A stretch of 64,000 nt of DNA from Escherichia coli (lineage in GTDB: Bacteria; Pseudomonadota; Gammaproteobacteria; Enterobacterales; Enterobacteriaceae), in the NCBI RefSeq assembly GCF_036507355.1, contig NZ_AP027877.1; one strand, given 5' to 3'. Numbering within the stretch: position 1 is the first letter of the stretch; each line of letters starts with the position of its first letter. A program made the translations under genes and the position numbers. Under the pieces are notes generated by a model. The model saw nothing but the letters and a program-made list of their open reading frames with translations. It searched no databases and was not told the DNA's origin. This document shows positions 2,844-20,134 of this stretch, in pieces.

Positions 2844-3601
2844 TTATGGCAATGGGTTATTGGCCCGACGCGCCAGCCACTCTTTAATTTGCTGGCGATG
2901 CAGGCTAACGGAACGACCTACGACAACGACGATAAGTAGCGCACCGGAAAGGGCGCTGGACACCTGATTTGGCACTCCTGCCATTTGCAAACCTTGTTGC
3001 AAATATCCCACTAATAAAACCGCAATGGCGGTGCCGATAATGGAACCGGAACCACCATAAATATTGGCACCGCCAAGCACCACGGCGGTGATGGCGGGCA
3101 TCAGAAACGACGCACCGAGATCGGAACGTGCTGAACCAAAATACGACACCAGCAGCACAGCGGCGACCGCAGACGCCAGCCCCGTCATGGCATAGAGCGC
3201 ACATAAGGTACGGTTAACTGGAATCGCGCTATAAAGCGCCACGCGCGGGCTTTGCCCAATCAAAAACACGTTACGTCCGGCATGGGTTTTATGCAGCCAG
3301 AGCCAGAAAACGAGGAGACATATCAGGAAGATAATCAGCGGAACGGGGAGCCCCAACACATCCAGGTTAGCGAAATCTGTAAACGCCATCGGGAATCCAC
3401 CAATACCTTCGTACCCCGTCGCTCCGACCATCCCGGAAAGCAGCAGGGCGCTTCCGGCAAACAGATACAGCGTGCCAAGCGTAATCACCAGCGGGTTAAC
3501 TTTGGTATAGATAATTAATCCGGCGTTGATCAGCCCGCACAATGCGCCGAGCAGTAAGGTCAGGAGAATCGCCAGCGGCATCGGCACACCACTTTGAAAC
3601 A
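2844..3601 (-). pseudogene. lsrD: lsrD 3' fragment (C-terminal ~250 codons of the AI-2 ABC permease), cut off from its 5' end by the transposon
   Basis: ORF 2844..3587 is a polytopic permease C-terminus. Together with 9242..9481 it sums to 993 nt (330 codons plus stop) once the 5-bp duplication is counted once. Confidence 0.85.
3597..3601. repeat. 5-bp target-site duplication AAACA (left copy)
   Basis: Identical AAACA immediately outside both terminal inverted repeats (3597-3601 and 9242-9246). Confidence 0.8.
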
Positions 3602-3639
3602 GGGGGAACCGCAGAATTCGGAAAAAATCGTACGCTAAG
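3602..3639. repeat. left 38-bp terminal inverted repeat of the transposon
   Basis: GGGGGAACCGCAGAATTCGGAAAAAATCGTACGCTAAG; 35/38 match to the reverse complement of 9204-9241. Confidence 0.85.
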
Positions 3640-3790
3640 CTAACGGTGTTCTCGTGACAGCTCTTTGACTAGGCTTTCTAAGGCCATTCTGATAGCCCTG
3701 ACTTCCTGAAAAGCCATGGCTAAAATTTGTGCGGCTAAAAGGGATAACCGATGGTAAAGTAAGTTATCCCTGTCGAGATACTGAAAAGCG

Positions 3791-5368
3791 TTATCCTCGT
3801 TTTTCCCAAAACTGTTTTGCCAGTTCGCTCAGAGCGCTAGTTAACTGAGCGACAGATTTCGCACTTTGCAAATTATTCTGCCCGGTCTGTACATTGGTAT
3901 CAGCAGCATCGCGTATATTGATAATACTGCGGTTTATGTCTTCACTTACTGCTCCCTGCTGCTCGACCGCAGTCGCTATTTGCGCGTTCATGTCGGTAAT
4001 TTCGTTAACGCGTTGGCCAATTCCATCAAGAGCTGTAGCTGCTTCCTCTGCGTGAGCTACACTCGTGTGCGCTTGCCGACTACTTTGCTCCATGACTGTA
4101 ACAGCGGATTGCGCTCGCTCTTGTAGAGCGCTGATCATGCTTTGAATATCCGTTGTCGATTGCTGTGTGCGAGCAGCAAGACTGCGAACCTCATCGGCGA
4201 CAACAGCAAAACCACGCCCCTGCTCACCAGCACGCGCGGCCTCAATTGCTGCGTTGAGTGCCAACAAATTCGTTTGCTCGGCGATCCCTCGTATAACGTC
4301 AAGAACTTTTGATATCTCGTTACTTTGACCTTCAAGCTCATGAATAACCTGAGTGGCTTGCCTAATTTCACCTTCAAGGGCAGTGATTGACTGGCTTGTG
4401 TGGGCTACCAGACGCTGGCCAGATGCCGTCTCAGTGTCTGCTCTTCCGGCCGCATCTGCAGCATGCTGTGCATTGCTCGCAACCTCTTGAATGCTTGCCA
4501 CCATTTGGTTTACTGCCGTTGCTATTTGATCTGTCTCTGCCTGCTGCTCAACTGTAAGTACATTGCTTGACTCAATATCCTTTAGTAGGCCTCGGGTGTG
4601 TTCGCTAAGCCGATTTGATGCATCACCTATGCGACCTACTATGGCGCCTGTTTCAGCTTGCATCATTCGTAAAGCAAACTCTATTTGGCCAAACTCATCG
4701 GTGCGCCCAGTGTAGAGGGATTGACTTAATGGGTTATTGGAAATATTCTTGGCTCTTTCAACCAGTCTTCCAAGAGGAGAGAGAATAGCCAAAACACTAA
4801 CAGAGCTTAAGCTTCCTGACATTAAAGTGGCTAACAATAAGCTGCTTATTGATGTATCAGTAAGCATGCCGGCAGCCATTGCGCTTGATATAATACTACC
4901 CCATATGAGCAAGAGTATTTTCACGGAAAAGCTAGCAGCCAATTTCGGCCTCGCGGCCTTCCCGCTTCTCAATTGAGCATATAATTTTTCCGCAGCCAAA
5001 ACCTGCTCAGGTTCAGGCTTGGTCCTTACAGACTGGTATTCAACAATCGAACCATTCTTAGCTATTGGCGTTACATAAGCACTTACCCAATAGTGGTCGC
5101 CATTTTTACAGCGATTTTTTACTAGCCCCATCCATGAGCGGCCAGATTTTAATGTACTCCACATATGCTCAAATGCAGCAGGCGGCATATCTGGGTGTCT
5201 TACGATGTTGTGAGGCTGGCCTAATAGTTCTTCCTCAGTGAAACCACTGATTTTAATGAAGTCAGGATTAACGTACGTGATATGGCTTTGAGGGGAGGTA
5301 GTCGAAAGAATATTGGCATCTTTTGGGAGTTCTAAGTTTCGACCCGTCACTGGTAAATTCTGGCGCAT
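3791..5368 (-). CDS. methyl-accepting chemotaxis protein with N-terminal PAS domain (525 aa), transposon cargo
   Basis: PAS-like N-terminus ([10 protein letters not shown]...[12 protein letters not shown]), hydrophobic segment, conserved MCP signalling core ([38 protein letters not shown]). Confidence 0.8.
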
Positions 5369-5677
5369 AAGAACCTCAAGGGTTGGCTGTTTTATTTTAT
5401 TGTTTTCGGCATTAAGCCCAATTTCTTGAGCGTTACGATAAAGCTAGCATGGAAACGATAGGTGCAAGCAAGTTAAGGGTTGCATCGCGCATGTCAATCT
5501 AGGCTATACCCTAACTTGATGTCAGGCAGGGCCGCGCCGCTTCGTCAGAATAGAGTCTGCTTTCCCATTTTTTGACACATGCCCGCGAAGGTTATAGATT
5601 TCAGCCTGACAGAAATGGGCTTTGAGGCACAACGGAACAGAAAGTGCACTTAAGCCGCCTTCAACCAAGGAGACATC
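5369..5677. promoter_or_regulatory. putative res (resolution) site and divergent promoter region between chemoreceptor gene and tnpR
   Basis: Intergenic position typical of res in Tn21/Tn1721-type elements; inverted repeats TGTCAGGC / GCCTGACA near 5520 and 5605. Subsites not mapped. Confidence 0.4.
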
Positions 5678-6238
5678 GTGCAGGGGCACCGCATCGGCTA
5701 CGTCCGGGTCAGCAGCTTTGACCAGAACCCGGAACGCCAGCTGGAACAAACCCAGGTGAGCAAGGTGTTCACCGACAAGGCATCGGGCAAGGACACCCAG
5801 CGCCCCCAGCTCGAAGCGCTGCTGAGCTTCGTCCGCGAAGGCGATACAGTGGTGGTGCACAGCATGGATCGGCTGGCCCGCAACCTCGATGACCTGCGTC
5901 GCTTGGTACAGAAGCTGACTCAGCGCGGCGTGCGCATCGAGTTCCTGAAGGAGGGCCTGGTGTTCACTGGCGAGGACTCGCCGATGGCCAACCTGATGCT
6001 GTCGGTGATGGGGGCCTTCGCTGAGTTCGAGCGCGCCCTGATCCGCGAGCGGCAGCGTGAGGGCATCGCCTTGGCCAAGCAGCGTGGCGCGTACCGGGGC
6101 CGCAAGAAAGCCCTGTCCGATGAGCAGGCTGCTACCCTGCGGCAGCGAGCGACGGCCGGCGAGCCCAAGGCGCAGCTTGCCCGCGAGTTCAACATCAGCC
6201 GGGAAACCCTCTACCAGTACCTCCGCACGGACGACTGA
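5678..6238 (+). CDS. tnpR: serine recombinase, Tn3-family resolvase TnpR (186 aa)
   Basis: Resolvase N-terminal catalytic motif (GYVRVSSFDQNPERQ), C-terminal HTH; close to Tn21/Tn1721 TnpR. Confidence 0.9.
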   Translation: MQGHRIGYVRVSSFDQNPERQLEQTQVSKVFTDKASGKDTQRPQLEALLSFVREGDTVVVHSMDRLARNLDDLRRLVQKLTQRGVRIEFLKEGLVFTGEDSPMANLMLSVMGAFAEFERALIRERQREGIALAKQRGAYRGRKKALSDEQAATLRQRATAGEPKAQLAREFNISRETLYQYLRTDD

Positions 6239-6241
6239 CAC

Positions 6242-9208
6242 ATGCCGCGTCGCTTGATCCTCTCGGCCACGGAGCGGGACACCCTGCTTGCGCTGCCGGA
6301 AAGCCAGGATGACCTGATCCGCTACTACACCTTCAACGACTCCGACCTGTCGCTGATCCGCCAGCGACGCGGCGACGCCAACCGCCTCGGCTTCGCCGTG
6401 CAGCTCTGCCTGCTGCGCTACCCCGGTTACGCGCTGGGAACCGACAGCGAGCTGCCCGAGCCGGTCATCCTGTGGGTGGCGAAGCAAGTCCAGGCCGAGC
6501 CGGCGAGCTGGGCAAAGTACGGCGAGCGCGACGTGACCCGTCGCGAGCATGCCCAGGAACTGCGCACCTACCTGCAACTGGCCCCGTTCGGCCTGTCCGA
6601 CTTCCGCGCCCTGGTGCGCGAGCTAACCGAGCTGGCCCAGCAGACCGACAAAGGCTTGCTGCTGGCCGGTCAGGCCCTGGAGAGCCTACGGCAGAAACGA
6701 CGCATCCTGCCGGCGCTGAGCGTGATTGACCGGGCCTGCTCGGAAGCCATTGCGCGAGCCAATCGGCGGGTCTACCGCGCCCTGGTCGAACCACTCACGG
6801 ACTCGCATCGGGCCAAGCTGGACGAGCTGTTGAAGCTCAAGGCCGGCAGCAGCATCACCTGGTTGACCTGGCTGCGCCAGGCACCGCTGAAACCCAACTC
6901 TCGGCACATGCTGGAACACATCGAGCGGCTGAAGACATTTCAGTTGGTGGACTTGCCCGAAGGCCTGGGCCGGCACATCCACCAGAACCGCCTGCTCAAG
7001 CTGGCCCGCGAGGGTGGGCAGATGACGCCCAAAGACCTCGGTAAGTTCGAGCCGCAGCGCCGCTACGCGACCCTGGCCGCCGTGGTGCTGGAGAGCACCG
7101 CGACCGTGATCGATGAGCTGGTCGATCTGCATGACCGCATCCTGGTCAAGCTGTTCAGCGGCGCGAAGCACAAGCATCAGCAGCAGTTCCAGAAGCAGGG
7201 CAAGGCGATCAACGACAAGGTGCGCCTGTACTCCAGGATCGGCCAGGCGCTGCTGGAAGCGAAGGAAAGCGGCAGCGACCCCTATGCCGCCATCGAGGCG
7301 GTGATTCCCTGGGACGAGTTCACCGAGAGCGTCAGCGAGGCCGAGCTGCTGGCCCGGCCGGAAGGCTTCGACCACCTGCACCTGGTCGGCGAGAACTTCG
7401 CCACCCTGCGCCGTTACACGCCGGCCTTGCTGGAGGTGCTGGAACTGCGCGCCGCGCCGGCCGCGCAAGGCGTGCTGGCAGCCGTGCAGACCCTGCGTGA
7501 GATGAACGCCGACAACCTGCGCAAGGTGCCGGCCGATGCACCCACGGCCTTCATCAAGCCGCGCTGGAAGCCGCTGGTGATCACCCCGGAAGGCCTCGAC
7601 CGGAAATTCTACGAAATCTGCGCCCTGTCCGAGCTGAAGAACGCCCTGCGCTCCGGCGACATCTGGGTCAAGGGCTCGCGGCAGTTCCGCGACTTCGACG
7701 ACTACCTGCTGCCGGCCGAGAAGTTCGCCGCACTCAAGCGCGAGCAGGCCCTGCCCCTGGCGATCAACCCGAACAGCGACCAGTACCTGGAAGAGCGTTT
7801 GCAGCTGCTGGACGAGCAGTTGGCCACCGTCACCCGCCTGGCCAAGGACAACGAGCTGCCCGATGCCATCCTCACCGAGTCAGGGCTGAAAATCACCCCG
7901 CTGGATGCGGCGGTGCCGGATCGGGCGCAGGCGCTGATCGACCAAACCAGCCAGTTACTGCCGCGCATCAAGATCACCGAACTGCTGATGGACGTGGACG
8001 ACTGGACGGGCTTCAGCCGCCACTTCACCCACTTGAAGGACGGGGCCGAGGCCAAAGACAGGACGTTGCTGCTGTCCGCAATCCTCGGTGATGCGATCAA
8101 CCTCGGGCTGACCAAGATGGCCGAGTCGAGCCCCGGCCTGACCTACGCCAAGCTGTCCTGGCTGCAAGCCTGGCACATCCGCGACGAAACCTATTCGGCG
8201 GCCTTGGCCGAGCTGGTCAACCACCAGTATCGCCACGCCTTTGCCGCCCACTGGGGCGACGGCACGACCTCATCCTCCGATGGCCAGCGCTTCCGCGCGG
8301 GTGGCCGGGGCGAGAGCACCGGGCACGTCAACCCGAAGTACGGTAGCGAGCCGGGACGGCTGTTCTATACCCATATCTCCGACCAGTACGCGCCGTTCAG
8401 CACCCGCGTGGTGAATGTCGGCGTCCGCGATTCCACCTATGTGCTCGACGGCCTGCTGTACCACGAGTCCGACCTGCGGATCGAGGAGCACTACACCGAC
8501 ACGGCCGGCTTCACCGATCACGTCTTTGCCCTGATGCACCTGCTAGGCTTCCGCTTCGCGCCGCGCATCCGCGACCTCGGCGAAACCAAGCTGTACGTGC
8601 CGCAGGGCGTGCAAGCCTACCCGACGTTGCGCCCGCTGATCGGCGGCACCCTGAACATCAAGCACGTGCGTGCCCACTGGGACGACATCCTGCGCCTGGC
8701 CAGCTCGATCAAGCAGGGCACCGTCACCGCCTCGCTGATGCTGCGCAAGCTCGGCAGCTACCCGCGCCAGAACGGACTGGCCGTGGCCCTGCGCGAGCTG
8801 GGCCGGATCGAGCGCACGCTGTTCATCCTGGACTGGCTGCAAAGTGTTGAACTGCGCCGCCGCGTGCATGCCGGCCTGAACAAAGGTGAGGCGCGCAACT
8901 CGCTGGCCAGGGCGGTGTTCTTCAACCGCCTTGGGGAAATCAGGGATCGGAGCTTCGAGCAGCAGCGCTACCGGGCCAGCGGCCTCAACCTGGTGACGGC
9001 GGCTATCGTGCTGTGGAACACGGTGTACCTGGAACGCGCCACCCAGGGGTTGGTCGAGGCCGGCAAGCCGGTGGACGGCGAGCTGCTGCAATTCCTGTCG
9101 CCGCTGGGCTGGGAGCACATCAACCTAACCGGCGATTACGTCTGGCGGCAGAGCCGCAGACTGGAAGACGGGAAGTTTCGGCCCTTACGGATGCCCGGAA
9201 AACCTTAG
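6242..9208 (+). CDS. tnpA: Tn3-family transposase TnpA (988 aa)
   Basis: 988-aa ORF, typical Tn3/Tn21 transposase length; 3' end runs into the right inverted repeat, as is usual in this family. Confidence 0.9.
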
Positions 9209-9241
9209 CGTACGATTTTTTCCGAATTCTGCGGGCTCCCC
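9204..9241. repeat. right 38-bp terminal inverted repeat of the transposon
   Basis: CTTAGCGTACGATTTTTTCCGAATTCTGCGGGCTCCCC; reverse complement matches the Tn1721-type IR. Confidence 0.85.
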
Positions 9242-9246
9242 AAACA
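9242..9246. repeat. 5-bp target-site duplication AAACA (right copy)
   Basis: Same pentamer as 3597-3601, directly abutting the right IR. Confidence 0.8.
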
Positions 9247-9481
9247 GTACGCCCAATGCAATGGCGCAGAGGCCGATGGTCGAACCAAACGAAATATCGA
9301 TCCCGCCACTGACAATCACCATCGTCAGCGGTAGGGCGACAATGCCAATGCAGATAAAGTCACTGGTGCTGAACAGCAACATATTGAGATCTAACATCCG
9401 CGGGTTAATTGCACCAAATGCGACAATCTCAATAACGAGCAGTGCGGCAAGAGCCAGTTCCCAACCGTAGCGAATACGCAT
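9242..9481 (-). pseudogene. lsrD: lsrD 5' fragment (N-terminal ~80 codons)
   Basis: Reverse-strand ORF begins [30 protein letters not shown]..., then reads into the transposon IR. Confidence 0.85.
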
Positions 9482-10509
9482 TATGCGGCCTCCCGTTTTT
9501 TACCTGACGAAGCGGGTTTAACGGATGGCGGTGGCGTCATAAAGCGGGCATATTTTTGCCGCCGTAGATTACGTTCCAGCGCACAACGCAGGCGTCCATC
9601 AAACACCAGCACCACCAGTAGCACGAGGCCCGCGATAAAATCGTTCCACCATGCCGGAATGCGCAACAGCACCAGTACGCTATCGATCTGCGTCAGGAAC
9701 CATGCGCCGAGTACCGCACCGATGATCGCACCGGAACCGCTGAGCAAACTAATGCCGCCCAGCACGCAGGCTGCAATTGCTTTCATCTCCAGCCCGGTAC
9801 CGGTCTGGTTGGGGATAAAACCAATCTGCGAAGCAAACACAATTCCCGCCAGTGCCGCCATGCAGCCGTTCAACGAAAATGCCACAATGCGAATGGCTTC
9901 CGTACGAACGCCCAGTTGACGAGCGCCCTGTAAATTATCGCCCGTGGCATAAAAACTGCGTCCAAACGCCGTCTTCGCCAGCAGCCAGGCCATAAATGCC
10001 ACCAGAATTATTGTTAACCAACCAATTGCTGAAACGCCAAGCAGCAGCGGGGCGGAGAGCTGTTTCAGTTCGGCGGGTAACCCCTCAATCCATTTACCGC
10101 CAGTCCACAGCAACATGATGCCTCTGTACAACCCTAACGTGCCAAGGGTGGCAACAATGGCAGGGATTTTTAGCCACGCGACCAGGACACCGTTGAAAAA
10201 TCCTGCGAGCAAACCAAGCAGTAAAGTCGCGACACAAGCAACAGGTAGTGAATACCCCGCGTTCAGTAACATCCCCAACAGCACCGCGCACATTCCGGTA
10301 ATCGAACCCACTGAAACATCAATATTGCGCGTAAGCATTACCAGCGTCGCGCCCATTGCCAGCAGGATCAGGATTTGCGCGCTGCTATAAACCATGGTCA
10401 GCGTTTGCACACTTAAATACTGGCGGTCGAGAAAACCGGGTAATACAAACAGCAGCACCACCGCCAGCAGTGCCGTGATTTCACGGTTGTTCTGAATAAA
10501 CTTCAGCAT
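9481..10509 (-). CDS. lsrC: AI-2 ABC transporter permease LsrC (342 aa)
   Basis: 342-aa polytopic membrane ORF between lsrA and lsrD; length matches LsrC. Confidence 0.9.
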
Positions 10510-13318: not shown

Positions 13319-14848
13319 ATGGCTCGACTCTTTACCCCTTCAGAATCAAAGTATTACCTGATGGCGCTGGATGCAGGCACCGGAAGTATTCGGGCTGTGA
13401 TATTCGACCTGGAAGGCAATCAAATAGCAGTGGGACAGGCGGAGTGGCGGCATCTGGCAGTACCGGACGTTCCTGGTTCTATGGAATTTGATCTCAACAA
13501 AAACTGGCAACTGGCGTGTGAGTGTATGCGCCAGGCGCTGCACAACGCCGGCATAGCCCCGGAGTATATCGCTGCCGTTTCGGCATGTTCGATGCGTGAA
13601 GGCATTGTTTTATATAACAATGAAGGAACACCGATCTGGGCCTGCGCCAATGTGGATGCCAGAGCGGCGCGCGAAGTTAGCGAACTTAAAGAACTGCACA
13701 ACAATACCTTTGAAAACGAAGTTTATCGCGCGACCGGACAAACGCTGGCTTTAAGTGCCATCCCCAGATTACTTTGGCTGGCCTATATGCTCAGCGGCGA
13801 ACTTGCGGTGGATCCCTCTAACGCTGGCACCACGGGACTTCTTGATCTAACCATCCGTGACTGGAAACCTGCATTGCTGGATATGGCTGGCCTGCGTGCC
13901 GATATTCTTTCTCCTGTCAAAGAAACCGGCACATTGCTGGGCGTGGTAAGTTCACAAGCGGCGGAACTCTGCGGTCTGAAGGCGGGCACTCCGGTGGTCG
14001 TTGGAGGAGGCGACGTGCAGCTTGGTTGCCTGGGGTTAGGCGTTGTGCGTCCGGCACAAACCGCGGTTCTTGGCGGCACATTCTGGCAGCAAGTTGTAAA
14101 TTTAGCCGCGCCGGTGACAGACCCAGAAATGAACGTGCGCGTTAATCCTCATGTTATTCCTGGCATGGTACAAGCTGAATCTATAAGCTTTTTTACCGGA
14201 CTCACCATGCGCTGGTTCCGCGATGCTTTCTGTGCCGAAGAAAAACTGATTGCCGAACGTTTAGGCATCGACACCTATACGCTGCTGGAAGAGATGGCCA
14301 GTCGGGTGCCGCCTGGGTCGTGGGGCGTAATGCCGATCTTCTCCGACAGAATGCGCTTTAAAACCTGGTATCACGCTGCGCCTTCCTTTATTAACTTGTC
14401 CATTGACCCGGATAAATGTAACAAAGCGACATTGTTCCGTGCGCTGGAAGAAAATGCGGCGATTGTATCAGCGTGTAACTTGCAGCAAATTGCTGATTTC
14501 TCGAATATTCATCCTTCATCGTTAGTCTTTGCAGGCGGAGGTTCAAAAGGGAAATTATGGAGTCAAATTCTCGCTGATGTCTCGGGATTACCCGTCAATA
14601 TTCCGGTAGTCAAAGAAGCCACCGCATTAGGATGTGCCATTGCAGCTGGCGTCGGTGCCGGAATTTTTTCATCAATGGCAGAAAACGGAGAACGCCTGGT
14701 TCGCTGGGAACGGACGCACACACCAGACCCAGAAAAGCATGAACTTTATCAGGATTCACGCGATAAGTGGCAGGCAGTTTATCAGGATCAGCTGGGGCTG
14801 GTTGATCATGGACTGACGACGTCGTTATGGAAAGCGCCTGGGTTATAG
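13319..14848 (+). CDS. lsrK: autoinducer-2 kinase LsrK (FGGY carbohydrate kinase), 509 aa here
   Basis: FGGY-kinase N-terminus ([13 protein letters not shown]), lsrRK context; in-frame stop immediately upstream of the ATG at 13319. Shorter than the ~530 aa I recall for K-12. Confidence 0.85.
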
Positions 14849-15060
14849 TTTCATTGACAGCCACATCATGATGACCGTGGCTGTTAGTTTTTGAGTATAG
14901 TTATTCTTATTTCCCTTCTTTTAGAGCTGGCTTGTTAAATGCCAGCTTGCAGATTCATCGTTCCATCACCAGTACTATATTCAAGGGAAAATTGCTATTT
15001 TTCTTGGTGATGCTGCCAACTTACTGATTTAGTGTATGATGGTGTTTTTGAGGTGCTCCA

Positions 15061-15336
15061 GTGGCTTCTGTTTCTATCAGCTGTCCCTCCTGTTCAGCTA
15101 CTGACGGGGTGGTGCGTAACGGCAAAAGCACCGCCGGACATCAGCGCTATCTCTGCTCTCACTGCCGTAAAACATGGCAACTGCAGTTCACTTACACCGC
15201 TTCTCAACCCGGTACGCACCAGAAAATCATTGATATGGCCATGAATGGCGTTGGATGCCGGGCAACAGCCCGCATTATGGGCGTTGGCCTCAACACGATT
15301 TTACGTCACTTAAAAAACTCAGGCCGCAGTCGGTAA
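15061..15336 (+). CDS. insA: IS1 InsA (91 aa)
   Basis: [43 protein letters not shown]... zinc-finger/HTH InsA. Confidence 0.95.
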
Positions 15337-15758
15337 CCTCGCGCATACAGCCGGGCAGTGACGTCATCGTCTGCGCGGAAATGGACGAACAGTGGGGCTA
15401 TGTCGGGGCTAAATCGCGCCAGCGCTGGCTGTTTTACGCGTATGACAGGCTCCGGAAGACGGTTGTTGCGCACGTATTCGGTGAACGCACGATGGCGACG
15501 CTGGGGCGTCTTATGAGCCTGCTGTCACCCTTTGACGTGGTGATATGGATGACGGATGGCTGGCCGCTGTATGAATCCCGCCTGAAGGGAAAGCTGCACG
15601 TAATCAGCAAGCGATATACGCAGCGAATTGAGCGGCATAACCTGAATCTGAGGCAGCACCTGGCACGGCTGGGACGGAAGTCGCTGTCGTTCTCAAAATC
15701 GGTGGAGCTGCATGACAAAGTCATCGGGCATTATCTGAACATAAAACACTATCAATAA
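15255..15758 (+). CDS. insB: IS1 InsB reading frame (167 aa; the transposase InsAB' is made by -1 frameshift at the A-run near 15310)
   Basis: Canonical InsB sequence; TTAAAAAAC slippery run in the insA/insB overlap. Confidence 0.9.
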
Positions 15759-15773
15759 GTTGGAGTCATTACC

Positions 15774-17755
15774 GGAATTTCCTCGGAACGGGCGAAGCTT
15801 TCCGCTATATCTATATCGGTGATGCTGGCGATGGTGAACTTAATGTCTCGAGTGAAGGCAAAGTAGATTCGGGAATTATCACTGCGGGGATGAAAGAAAC
15901 AGGCACAGGCAACATTACTGTTAAGGATAAGAACTCCGTTATCACTAATCTCGGAACTAATCTTGGTTATGACGGCCACGGCAAAATGAATATCAGTAAT
16001 GAGGGGCTTGTTGTCAGCAACGGAGGAAGCTCTCTCGGTTATGGAGAAACCGGCGTCGGGAAGGTTAGCATCACCACGGGGGGGATATGGGAGGTCAATA
16101 AGAATGTCTATACCACCATTGGTGTTGCGGGCGTCGGAAACCTCAATATTAGCGATGGCGGTAAGTTCGTATCGCAAAATATTACTTTTTTGGGCGATAA
16201 AGCAAGCGGTATCGGCACTCTGAACCTGATGGATGCGACATCATCGTTCGATACTGTGGGTATCAATGTCGGTAATTTTGGTAGCGGTATCGTAAATGTC
16301 AGTAATGGTGCCACCCTTAATTCAACGGGCTATGGATTTATCGGAGGAAATACCTCCGGTAAGGGGATAGTTAATATTTCAACGGATAGTCTCTGGAATT
16401 TAAAGACATCATCTACTAACGCCCAATTGCTACAGGTCGGTGTATTAGGCACGGGTGAACTGAATATTACCACCGGAGGTATAGTTAAAGCGCGTGATAC
16501 ACAGATAGCTCTCAATGACAAAAGTAAGGGCGACGTGAGGGTGGATGGGCAGAACTCTCTTCTTGAAACATTCAATATGTACGTAGGGACATCTGGTACG
16601 GGTACGTTAACCCTGACGAATAGCGGCACGCTGAATGTCGAAGGTGGAGAAGTTTACTTAGGTGTTTTTGAACCTGCTGTAGGAACGCTAAACATTGGTG
16701 CAGCTCACGGTGAGGCGGCGGCAGATGCCGGGTATATAACCAACGCGACGAAAGTAGAGTTTGGTTCTGGCGAAGGTGTTTTTGTCTTTAATCATACTAA
16801 TAACAGTGATGCCGGCTACCAGGTCGATATGCTGATTACAGGTGACGATAAAGACGGAAAAGTGATCCATGATGCAGGCCATACGGTGTTCAATGCAGGG
16901 AATACTTATAGCGGTAAAACGCTGGTCAATGACGGCATCCTGACCATTGCGTCTCATACGGCAGATGGGGTAACGGGCATGGGTTCGAGTGAAGTAACCA
17001 TTGCAAGCCCCGGTACGCTCGACATTCTCGCATCAACGAACAGTGCAGGAGATTACACGCTGACCAATGCGCTCAAAGGCGATGGCTTGATGCGAGTGCA
17101 GCTGTCATCCTCCGACAAGATGTTTGGCTTTACCCATGCAACAGGGACTGAATTCGCCGGTGTTGCCCAAGTGAAAGACAGTACCTTCACTCTGGAACGC
17201 GACAACACCGCTGCGCTTACTCACGCGATGTTGCAGTCTGACAGTGAAAATACCACATCGGTAAAAGTTGGAGAGCAATCCATTGGTGGACTGGCCATGA
17301 ATGGAGGTACCCTCATTTTCGATATCCAGGTCTTTCAGTGGTTGATTGGCGCAACGGATGGCCATGCAAAAAACTTCTCCGTATTTATTCAGGCTGGCGG
17401 CAGTTATCGACTCACGCCATTTTACGACATCATTTCAGCATTTCCGGTATTGGGTGGCGCGGGAATACACATCAGCGATCTCAAACTGGCAATGGGGCTT
17501 AACGCATCCAAAGGCAAAAAAACGGCAATCGATAAAATTTATCCGCGACATTTTTTGGCGACAGCAAAGGTGCTGAGATTCCCGGAAGTGCAGATGCATG
17601 AAATCCTGAGTGACTTTGCCAGAATGATTCCGGCAGCACTGGATAACGTGAAGACTTCATTACCGACAGATTTTCCAGAGAACGTGGTGACGGCAGTTGA
17701 AACCAATGTGTTGAGGTTGCACGGTCGGTTAAGCCGAGAATACGGTATTAAGTAA
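15774..17755 (+). pseudogene. chimeric remnant: AIDA-like autotransporter passenger fragment (ydeK/yneO-like, 5' end removed by IS1, no beta-barrel domain) fused in frame to the 3' end of hipA
   Basis: N-terminal ~480 codons are Gly/Thr/Asn/Ser-rich beta-helix repeats; the last ~142 codons are the HipA C-terminus. Confidence 0.7.
17327..17755 (+). pseudogene. hipA: hipA 3' fragment (C-terminal ~142 codons of the HipA kinase toxin, including the catalytic loop); hipB and the hipA 5' part are absent
   Basis: QVFQWLIGATDGHAKNFSVFIQAGGSYRLTPFYDIISAFPVLGG...RLHGRLSREYGIK matches the HipA C-terminus; the N-terminal domain and ATP-binding region are not upstream. Confidence 0.75.
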
Positions 17756-18008
17756 GAGTAAGATATGGGGTTTGGTCGTTGTTAATGAGCAGGACAATCA
17801 TGACCGCCAACGACTAGATTCTTCCTTGGTTTATGTTGGTGCGCATAATGTATATTATGTTAAATCACCTACTGTGGTAAATAAGTTCATATGACACTCC
17901 CACTAACTGATAAATCAATACGTTAGGATTTCTGATCTCCCTCTCGTTTCTTGCATTAGGTACAGAGTACATTCTCTTCATATCCATGATAATTTTGAGG
18001 TAAATATT

Positions 18009-18720
18009 GTGTATTCACTAAAGCAGTTGGTTATCTCAGGCCGTAAAAGGCGATGGATCCTGATGGACTTGGAAACCTCTCTGCCGTTGCTGTATCCCCT
18101 TAGGTACCATATTGACCATTTGGCTTTCCGCTCATTGTCCACACAGTCAGCTTCACTTCAATCTGTGAAGTTTTTTTACGAATTCTGGAGGCAAAAGTAT
18201 GGTGTCTCGTTTTGCTACAGCTTCTATTCATCTGACCACAATCCAGACATTGCTGTCGGTGAAATGCCCGCATTTTGGATGTATCTAGAAAATGGCCACA
18301 ACGTCCAGTCAAATGTGTTGTCTTTAACGAGAGTCACAAAAGCCAATAGCTTAACTCATACAGTTAGAGTTCGTGCTGTGATCCATTTCATTTCTTTTTT
18401 GATTAACACCTACATATCACCTGCATACCGGGATGACTCTCCCAAAGCATTATCACTTTTGGCTTCGCGTTTACACACCCGTTTACAGCTTTGCCGGGAG
18501 AATTATCGAACGCTTACATCAAACAAATTTTCGCAACATAGTCACAGCAGCCAAGGATTTCAGAGTTTGTCTGGGGCAATGGTGCTCAGCCTGTATGGAA
18601 TAATAACCCCCTCTTCTGCCCAAAAGCATAACCCGCTAAATCCTTTCCCTTCCGGGCATCTTCAGTTCCGCAATTTTTTGATTATTCGTCTGTTGTTAAA
18701 TTATGGTTTACGAACAGGTG
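18009..18720 (+). pseudogene. tyrosine recombinase / phage-integrase-family gene, N-terminal fragment truncated by IS1
   Basis: AT-rich ORF with an integrase-like N-terminal motif (LQSVKFFYEFW) and the start of a box-I-like motif (LLLNYGLRTGG) just before the IS1 boundary. Weak assignment, no search run. Confidence 0.35.
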
Positions 18721-18775
18721 GGTGATGCTGCCAACTTACTGATTTAGTGTATGATGGTGTTTTTGAGGTGCTCCA

Positions 18776-19051
18776 GTGGCTTCTGTTTCTATCAGCTGTC
18801 CCTCCTGTTCAGCTACTGACGGGGTGGTGCGTAACGGCAAAAGCACCGCCGGACATCAGCGCTATCTCTGCTCTCACTGCCGTAAAACATGGCAACTGCA
18901 GTTCACTTACACCGCTTCTCAACCCGGTACGCACCAGAAAATCATTGATATGGTCATGAATGGCGTTGGATGCCGGGCAACAGCCCGCATTATGGGCGTT
19001 GGCCTCAACACGATTTTACGTCACTTAAAAAACTCAGGCCGCAGTCGGTAA
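18776..19051 (+). CDS. insA: IS1 InsA (91 aa)
   Basis: Identical to copy-1 InsA except one residue (MVMNG vs MAMNG). Confidence 0.95.
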
Positions 19052-19473
19052 CCTCGCGCATACAGCCGGGCAGTGACGTCATCGTCTGCGCGGAAATGGA
19101 CGAACAGTGGGGCTATGTCGGGGCTAAATCGCGCCAGCGCTGGCTGTTTTACGCGTATGACAGGCTCCGGAAGACGGTTGTTGCGCACGTATTCGGTGAA
19201 CGCACGATGGCGACGCTGGGGCATCTTATGAGCCTGCTGTCACCCTTTGACGTGGTGATATGGATGACGGATGGCTGGCCGCTGTATGAATCCCGCCTGA
19301 AGGGAAAGCTGCACGTAATCAGCAAGCGATATACGCAGCGAATTGAGCGGCATAACCTGAATCTGAGGCAGCACCTGGCACGGCTGGGACGGAAGTCGCT
19401 GTCGTTCTCAAAATCGGTGGAGCTGCATGACAAAGTCATCGGGCATTATCTGAACATAAAACACTATCAATAA
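18970..19473 (+). CDS. insB: IS1 InsB reading frame (167 aa)
   Basis: Identical to copy-1 InsB except one residue (LGHLMS vs LGRLMS). Confidence 0.9.
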
Positions 19474-19488
19474 GTTGGAGTCATTACC

Positions 19489-20134
19489 TGCTTGCCATAG
19501 CACCGTTGCCAACGCAGCTGTCGCACTGGGTGCGACTCGGGTAATTTATCCGGAAAACCAGAAACAGGTTTTATTGCCTGTCACGAATAATGATCCTGCC
19601 AGTGTCTATCTCATTCAGTCATGGATAGAAAATGCAGGTGACCAAAAAGACACCCAGTTTGTCATTACCCCACCGCTTTTTTCCATGCAAGGTAAAAAAG
19701 AGAATACGCTGCGGATAATCAACGCCACTAATCATCAGTTACCAGGCGACCGTGAAAGCCTGTTCTGGGTGAATGTTAAAGCTATTCCTGCTATGGAAAA
19801 AGACCAGAAGAATGAGAATACATTACAGCTGGCAATTATTAGCCGCATAAAAATGTTTTATCGCCCCACGAACCTGGCAATGGCACCTGAAGAAGCGCAT
19901 GCAATGCTTCGGTTTCGTCGCAGCGGTAGCAAACTCACTCTTATTAATCCAACGCCCTACTTCATTACCGTAACAAATATGAAAGCAGGAAATAGCAATC
20001 TCCCAAACACCATGGTGCCGCCAAAAGGTGAAGTGTCGGTGGATATCCCGCATGCTGCCACCGGGGATATCAGTTTTCAGACGATCAATGATTACGGCGC
20101 ATTAACTCCGCGTATTAAGGCAACCATGCAGTAA
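19489..20134 (+). pseudogene. periplasmic fimbrial chaperone (PapD/FimC family), 5' end and signal-peptide region removed by IS1
   Basis: Reading frame opens directly at the IS1 end with a mature chaperone N-terminus (..RVIYPENQKQ..) and immunoglobulin-like chaperone domains; no own start codon or promoter. Confidence 0.75.

Follow-up and report, generated by a model that had tools for sequence, protein, structure and literature searches.

In Escherichia coli K-12, the hipBA module encodes the serine/threonine kinase HipA together with its helix-turn-helix antitoxin HipB and is located in the interval that extends from lsrK and an autotransporter gene to the F9 fimbrial operon. Variability has been described upstream of the F9 operon (PMC7232551). 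Truncated versions of the autotransporter gene, which is named ECSE_1600 in strain SE11 and present in K-12 as the pseudogene yneO/ydeK/ydeU, are found in MG1655, E24377A and Sakai (PMC2608844). The toxin-antitoxin module itself is affected in the O157:H7 strains Sakai and EDL933, which carry an incomplete hipA and no hipB (PMC7766294). Among the relatives of HipA, HipT of the HipBST system is naturally without the N-terminal subdomain and keeps all four kinase motifs (PMC8262856). Here we analyzed the corresponding locus in a 64-kb stretch of E. coli DNA, referred to as the window, for which an earlier note had claimed that hipBA is lost and that, of hipA, the last ~142 codons remain as an in-frame extension of an autotransporter fragment that borders on IS1.

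The autotransporter gene is joined directly to the 3' end of hipA

In strains GPEC1405 and 14EC033 the intact gene order is seen to be lsrR, lsrK, autotransporter, hipB, hipA and F9 fimbrial operon, and in some strains, BKQWHE among them, an integrase-carrying island lies between hipA and the F9 genes. Compared with this arrangement, the window carries three separate lesions, namely a first copy of IS1, a deletion junction and a second copy of IS1 (Table 1). Alignment to intact loci shows that the middle lesion is a direct join of the autotransporter gene to hipA at 17324/17325, inside the interval of 17320-17330 in which the breakpoint had been forecast. The sequence reads ...CATTTTCGATA up to the junction and continues with TCCAGGTCTTTCAG... 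on the hipA side (with the hipA side extended, ...CATTTTCGATA followed by TCCAGGTCTTT...). It is a blunt join that shows 0 bp of microhomology and is not occupied by an end of IS1. We also considered microhomology as the cause of the join, as ATTTT is shared a few nucleotides upstream and ATTCC downstream; this was rejected, since neither motif explains the join that is observed.

Table 1. Features of the hipBA region and of the transposon in lsrD.
Feature	Position	Strand	Details or basis
IS1 copy 1	15006-15773	+	768 bp; insA 15061-15336, insB frame 15255-15758; alignment
Internal fragment of an ECSE_1600-family type Va autotransporter (yneO/ydeK locus)	15774-17324	+	alignment, NF011422, PATR repeat
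Chimeric ORF	15890-17755	+	621 aa; ORF listing
Deletion junction	17324-17325	.	alignment to the 14EC033 locus (L003)
hipA 3' remnant	17325-17755	+	431 bp including stop codon; HipA aa 299-440
Left end of integrase-carrying island	17867-18720	+	alignment; also in BKQWHE
IS1 copy 2	18721-19488	+	same orientation as copy 1 and 99.7% identical to it; alignment
PAS/MCP-like gene of transposon	3791-5368	-	
Resolvase of transposon	5678-6238		
Tn3-family transposase	6242-9208		988 aa

Relative to the intact locus of 14EC033 (L003), 4,229 bp are missing, corresponding to L003 4772-9000 and comprising the 3' half of the autotransporter gene, hipB and the first 892 bp of hipA, while window positions 17325-17866 align with L003 9001-9543. 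When the HipB protein, the HipA protein and the deleted 4,229-bp reference segment were used as queries, no second match was detected in the 64-kb window, so that hipB and the N-terminal two thirds of HipA are indeed deleted, as had been proposed. Chance matches are ruled out by near-identity over hundreds of bases. We also checked whether the sequence upstream of the junction might be genuine hipA, or whether an intact hipBA might be present in the window: the upstream part is autotransporter sequence instead, and there is no intact hipBA.

The autotransporter fragment corresponds to roughly aa 338-856 of 1806. It is 97.9% identical to L003 3221-4771 of 14EC033 and 98.6% identical to positions 8317-9867 of the GPEC1405 locus (L004), and the passenger-repeat segment is 97-99% identical within the ECSE_1600 family. 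The NCBIfam profile NF011422 is matched at positions 376-856 of 1806 with E=0 and 1045 bits, which does not reach the curated cut-off of 2335; the E=0 match over this stretch identifies it as a genuine fragment of the family. In comparison to a full ECSE_1600-family protein, the window keeps only about 29%. Profile searches of the fragment gave no match to PF13018 (ESPR-type signal peptide), PF03797 (beta-barrel) or PF18883, and the autochaperone domain is absent. The ESPR signal peptide was lost with the IS1-associated deletion, the autochaperone and beta-barrel domains with the hipBA deletion. As both signal peptide and beta-barrel are gone, the autotransporter part is predicted to be incapable of secretion. 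In a group of other proteins (P0045-P0052), the FGGY kinase domain of LsrK is joined to autotransporter sequence, and the autotransporter gene thus appears to be eroded from both ends in natural isolates.

The hipA remnant lacks the ATP-binding half of the kinase

A tblastn search locates HipA aa 299-440 at 17327-17752 with 100% identity, in agreement with the claim that about 142 codons remain. Homology of the remnant to HipA is evident, although it is restricted to the C-terminal part: HipA chains in the PDB align to it only over residues 297-440 (E about 1e-87), and the match to Pfam HipA_C is confined to positions 122-211 of 213, the C-terminal 43% of the model. Kept are the catalytic motif GATDGHAKNFS (aa 306-316), which includes Asp309, and the Mg-binding Asp332 (aa 330-335), whereas the Gly-rich loop with Ser150 (aa 150-158), Lys181, the activation loop and the N-terminal domain are lost. 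For Ser150, Lys181, Asp309 and Asp332 we assume the functional roles generally attributed to these residues. The remnant accordingly retains two of the four motifs in the kinase set, which was taken from the literature (PMC8262856) and whose residues were located in the E. coli HipA sequence. The analogy to HipT fails at this point, as the remnant starts about 150 residues past the Gly-rich loop. Furthermore, no antitoxin gene (hipB, HTH-XRE) is found adjacent and upstream, where the autotransporter fragment is located instead.

Since the ATP-binding half has been lost, we infer that the remnant is neither a kinase nor a toxin; productive ATP binding would be ruled out, and kinase activity and growth arrest should be absent. 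In contrast to K-12 hipBA at the same locus, the window is without hipB, the promoter and operators and HipA aa 1-298, and does not represent a toxin-antitoxin module any more. The expectation that this locus cannot give rise to a functional HipA or HipB was thus borne out, as the Gly-rich loop with Ser150, Lys181, the N-terminal domain and hipB are all missing. Judging from the gene content, hipA-dependent persistence is presumably lost in this strain, and with the canonical hipBA module gone, the hipA7-type route to high persistence would be closed to it; other HipA-family kinases may be encoded outside the window.

Origin of the junction

We regard the locus as a pseudogene scar that was very probably left by one deletion of ~4.2 kb through illegitimate recombination, without mediation by IS1. 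Starting from an ancestral order of lsrR-lsrK-autotransporter-hipB-hipA-(island)-F9 fimbriae, a single deletion from autotransporter codon 856 to hipA codon 298 would have removed the 3' half of the autotransporter gene, hipB together with the hipBA promoter and operators, and 892 bp from the start of hipA. The blunt join, lacking both microhomology and an IS1 end, argues for ordinary illegitimate recombination and against IS1 as the agent. The deletion looks recent, as no difference has yet arisen between the remnant and intact hipA alleles (100% identity), and it looks strain-specific, as there is one deposited protein and the junction occurs in none of the complete RefSeq E. coli genomes (0/5,426).

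The same end product could have been reached in two steps if an earlier autotransporter-hipA deletion of the type found in RM11911 and L005, or of that found in XJ34, had been followed by a second deletion resetting the left breakpoint to codon 856. Such a nested origin would account for the observation that the hipA breakpoints of the window and of L005 coincide within 1 nt and that the L005 junction (...TTCAACAT followed by CCAGGTC) shares the heptamer ATCCAGG with the window (...TTCGATATCCAGGTC), and it would fit the hipA 3' end of XJ34, a strain with its own autotransporter-hipA deletion, which is 100% identical to that of the window over 236 bp (17325-17560). The hipA allele of L005, however, is of the type found in GPEC1405 (L004) and is only about 95.6% identical to that of the window, the two differing already 8 nt past the junction (CTTCCAG in L005 versus CTTTCAG in the window). 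Moreover, with about 11 in-frame junctions, we estimate the probability that a codon is shared by chance at roughly 12%, and a single event is more parsimonious than two nested ones. We therefore consider a nested origin unlikely and retain the single deletion as the preferred explanation.

The chimeric reading frame

The fused ORF is composed of 479 autotransporter codons counted from its ATG, close to the ~480 passenger codons given in the earlier note, followed by one hybrid codon and about 142 HipA codons. Upstream of the ATG the frame remains open back to 15716, inside IS1, and counted from the IS1 boundary the autotransporter part amounts to 517 codons. In the reference frame, the autotransporter gene contributes 683 codons and 1 base up to the break, while hipA contributes 2 bases and 142 codons; the 1 base and the 2 bases complete a codon, and the fusion is consequently in frame, with the junction peptide …GGTLIFDIQVFQWLIGATDGHAK. 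An in-frame outcome of this kind is a 1-in-3 chance event. The 621-aa product is identical to GenBank entry BED22426.1, annotated as 'hypothetical protein VEE46_21940 [Escherichia coli]', which is the single exact copy among about 15 billion proteins.

In a consensus scan of the region, the sole promoter-like site on the + strand is IS1's own (15013-15040), and no terminator-like site was found after it on the same strand. Low-level read-through transcription from IS1 is thus possible. No spaced Shine-Dalgarno sequence precedes the ATG at 15890, which is directly preceded by GCGGGG. From these features, the 621-aa ORF is most likely silent and functionless, and it would be better annotated as a pseudogene fusion than as a hypothetical protein.

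A functional chimera, expressed by read-through from IS1 and serving for instance as a decoy or regulator based on the HipA C-terminus, appears very improbable to us. Its attraction lies in the orientation of IS1 toward the ORF, in the frame that is open from 15716 to the hipA stop codon without a + strand terminator-like site in between, and in the many in-frame autotransporter::HipA fusions found in databases. A protein database, however, displays single-ORF fusions only if they are in frame, and out-of-frame alleles also exist, as exemplified by strain 644-PT8, where the annotated frames differ. The promoter of IS1, the only one available here, is weak and self-repressed, and a spaced ribosome binding site is missing. 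In addition, the chimera would have neither the ATP-binding half of the HipA kinase nor the signal peptide and beta-barrel of the autotransporter, and the occurrence of the allele in a single genome gives no sign of selection.

Loss of hipBA in other E. coli genomes

To place the scar among other E. coli genomes, we used the counts of matching genomes in the set of 5,426 complete RefSeq genomes. Of these, 4,811 have a detectable hipB and 5,333 the hipA 3' end, so that at least 522 genomes (about 10%) carry the hipA 3' end without hipB, a number that represents a lower bound derived from aggregated counts. Some part of the first 892 bp of hipA is found in 5,139 genomes, and at least 194 genomes, like the window, keep the 3' end with all of this segment absent.

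Distinct autotransporter-hipA deletion alleles are present in BKQWHE, N32, O157:H7 F1273, O157 644-PT8, RM11911/L005 and XJ34. The junction of L005, located at position 6318 of a Logan contig (SRR28568517), is shared by RM11911, RM13745 and RM13752. Eight further in-frame fusion types occur in the protein collection, where junctions lie at HipA residues 55, 136, 165, 261, 268, about 310 and 323, which brings the total to about 15 distinct alleles. Sakai and EDL933, as well as BKQWHE, N32, 644-PT8, RM11911 and XJ34, have undergone the same kind of event, in which hipB and the hipA 5' end are lost and a 3' remnant stays next to the ECSE_1600 locus; the window differs from them in its breakpoints, which connect autotransporter codon 856 to HipA codon 299. 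The scar thus adds one more allele to a form of hipBA decay that is already known and frequent, with nothing mechanistically new. An assembly artefact joining the autotransporter gene to hipA, which the presence of the allele in one deposited genome only might bring to mind, is scarcely credible, given that the junction offers no repeat or homology able to collapse an assembly, that the source sequence is a 4.64-Mb chromosome and that many independent complete assemblies show the same kind of deletion.

In a comparison that covered F1273 (L006), 644-PT8 (L007) and PV15-279 (H61), at least two different alleles with hipB and the hipA 5' end deleted occur within O157, and other O157:H7 genomes keep hipB, as seen from a 100% match to the 267-bp hipB query. 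Loss of hipBA thus recurs even within one serotype. As a separate observation, two HipA proteins carry in-frame internal tandem duplications, in which aa 1-381 are followed by aa 145-440 (P0105, 677 aa) or aa 1-367 by about aa 191-440 (P0118, 607 aa).

A possible influence of HipA toxicity on the deletion pattern

Antisense silencing of hipB was shown to inhibit the growth of K-12, an effect that depends on hipA (PMC6275173). If silencing is toxic by way of hipA, deletions of hipB should be tolerated only where hipA is disabled as well. On the hipB side, the 5.4-kb autotransporter gene lies about 210 bp away, and this large, dispensable and often decayed gene would leave ample neutral sequence in which the other breakpoint can fall. 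Together, the toxicity constraint and the neutral neighbour would be expected to generate hipA 3' remnants joined to autotransporter sequence, which is what we observe. In an evenly spaced sample of 60 of the 5,288 matching records, genomes that have the hipA 5' end but lack hipB were not encountered. This is consistent with a toxicity constraint, the argument for which draws on the aggregated counts together with the 60-record sample. Taken with the ~15 alleles, the about 10% of genomes that have a hipA 3' end and no hipB illustrate how a chromosomal toxin-antitoxin module is lost by co-deletion and not antitoxin first.

Based on these observations we tentatively put forward, as a possibility that we hold to be less probable than its negation, that the interval of lsrK, autotransporter gene and hipBA is a locus of recurrent deletion in which HipA toxicity has shaped the deletion spectrum. 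According to this proposal, hipB would never be lost alone, each viable loss would include the 5' end of hipA, and the 3' ends left in place would be datable scars of toxin-antitoxin loss. Natural populations of E. coli would then already contain a collection of examples of the ways in which a chromosome disposes of an 'addictive' toxin-antitoxin module.

A preferred breakpoint at hipA nt 892/893 is conceivable as well, at which the alleles of the window and of RM11911/L005 would have arisen independently. The autotransporter breakpoints of these two alleles are about 1 kb apart and their hipA alleles differ; a hotspot, a nested history and coincidence are all possible explanations for the match on the hipA side.

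Flanking IS1 copies and the F9 operon

The window holds just two IS1 copies, both with about 99% identity to IS1A/IS1B copies of other genomes. A Shigella origin, which IS1 might bring to mind, was rejected in view of this low number and of the deposition of the identical 621-aa protein under E. coli. Copy 1 takes the place of 1,382 bp that encompassed the promoter of the autotransporter gene, its ESPR signal peptide and the 5' passenger region; to the left of the element the alignment to reference locus L001 stops at 4157, and to the right it starts again at L001 5540. IS1 has terminal inverted repeats and generates a 9-bp target duplication on simple insertion. Such a duplication is absent at either copy, as is expected if each of them caused or followed an adjacent deletion. 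We rejected the possibility that copy 1 shares its insertion site with the IS1 of matched genomes (H1-H12) and subsequently gave rise to an adjacent deletion; the IS1 of GPEC1405 is located 280 bp further downstream in an intergenic position, and that of 14EC033 at another position of the autotransporter gene.

Although two IS1 copies flank the segment, neither with a target duplication and both with adjacent DNA deleted, removal of hipBA by an IS1-mediated adjacent deletion is essentially refuted by the junction sequence, because adjacent deletions leave the element at the breakpoint and 17324/17325 lies about 1.5 kb from either copy and displays no IS1 end. As direct repeats, the two copies flank a segment of 2,947 bp, which should render this segment prone to loss by IS1-IS1 recombination.

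Copy 2 truncates the integrase ORF of the island (18009-18725) and removes the remainder of the island, the gene for the F9 major subunit and the N-terminus of the F9 chaperone. With the major-subunit gene and the chaperone N-terminus lost, the F9 operon is probably inactive. In a profile alignment, the chaperone encoded at 19475-20134 lacks ~10-19 N-terminal residues.

Lesions in the lsr locus

On the other side of the autotransporter fragment, a 5,640-bp Tn3-family transposon (3602-9241), which we take to be Tn1722-like, is inserted in lsrD. Its terminal inverted repeats are 38 bp long and are flanked by a target duplication of 5 bp (AAACA); its genes are given in Table 1. The insertion splits the AI-2 uptake permease gene lsrD, the 3' part of which is found at 2844-3587, while lsrC (9481-10509) is intact. 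The lsrK gene (13319-14848) has lost 63 bp in frame between 8-bp direct repeats TGGCTGGC (13775-13782) and encodes 509 instead of 530 aa. Considered together, the lsrK deletion and the transposon in lsrD suggest ongoing decay of the lsr quorum-sensing locus in this strain.
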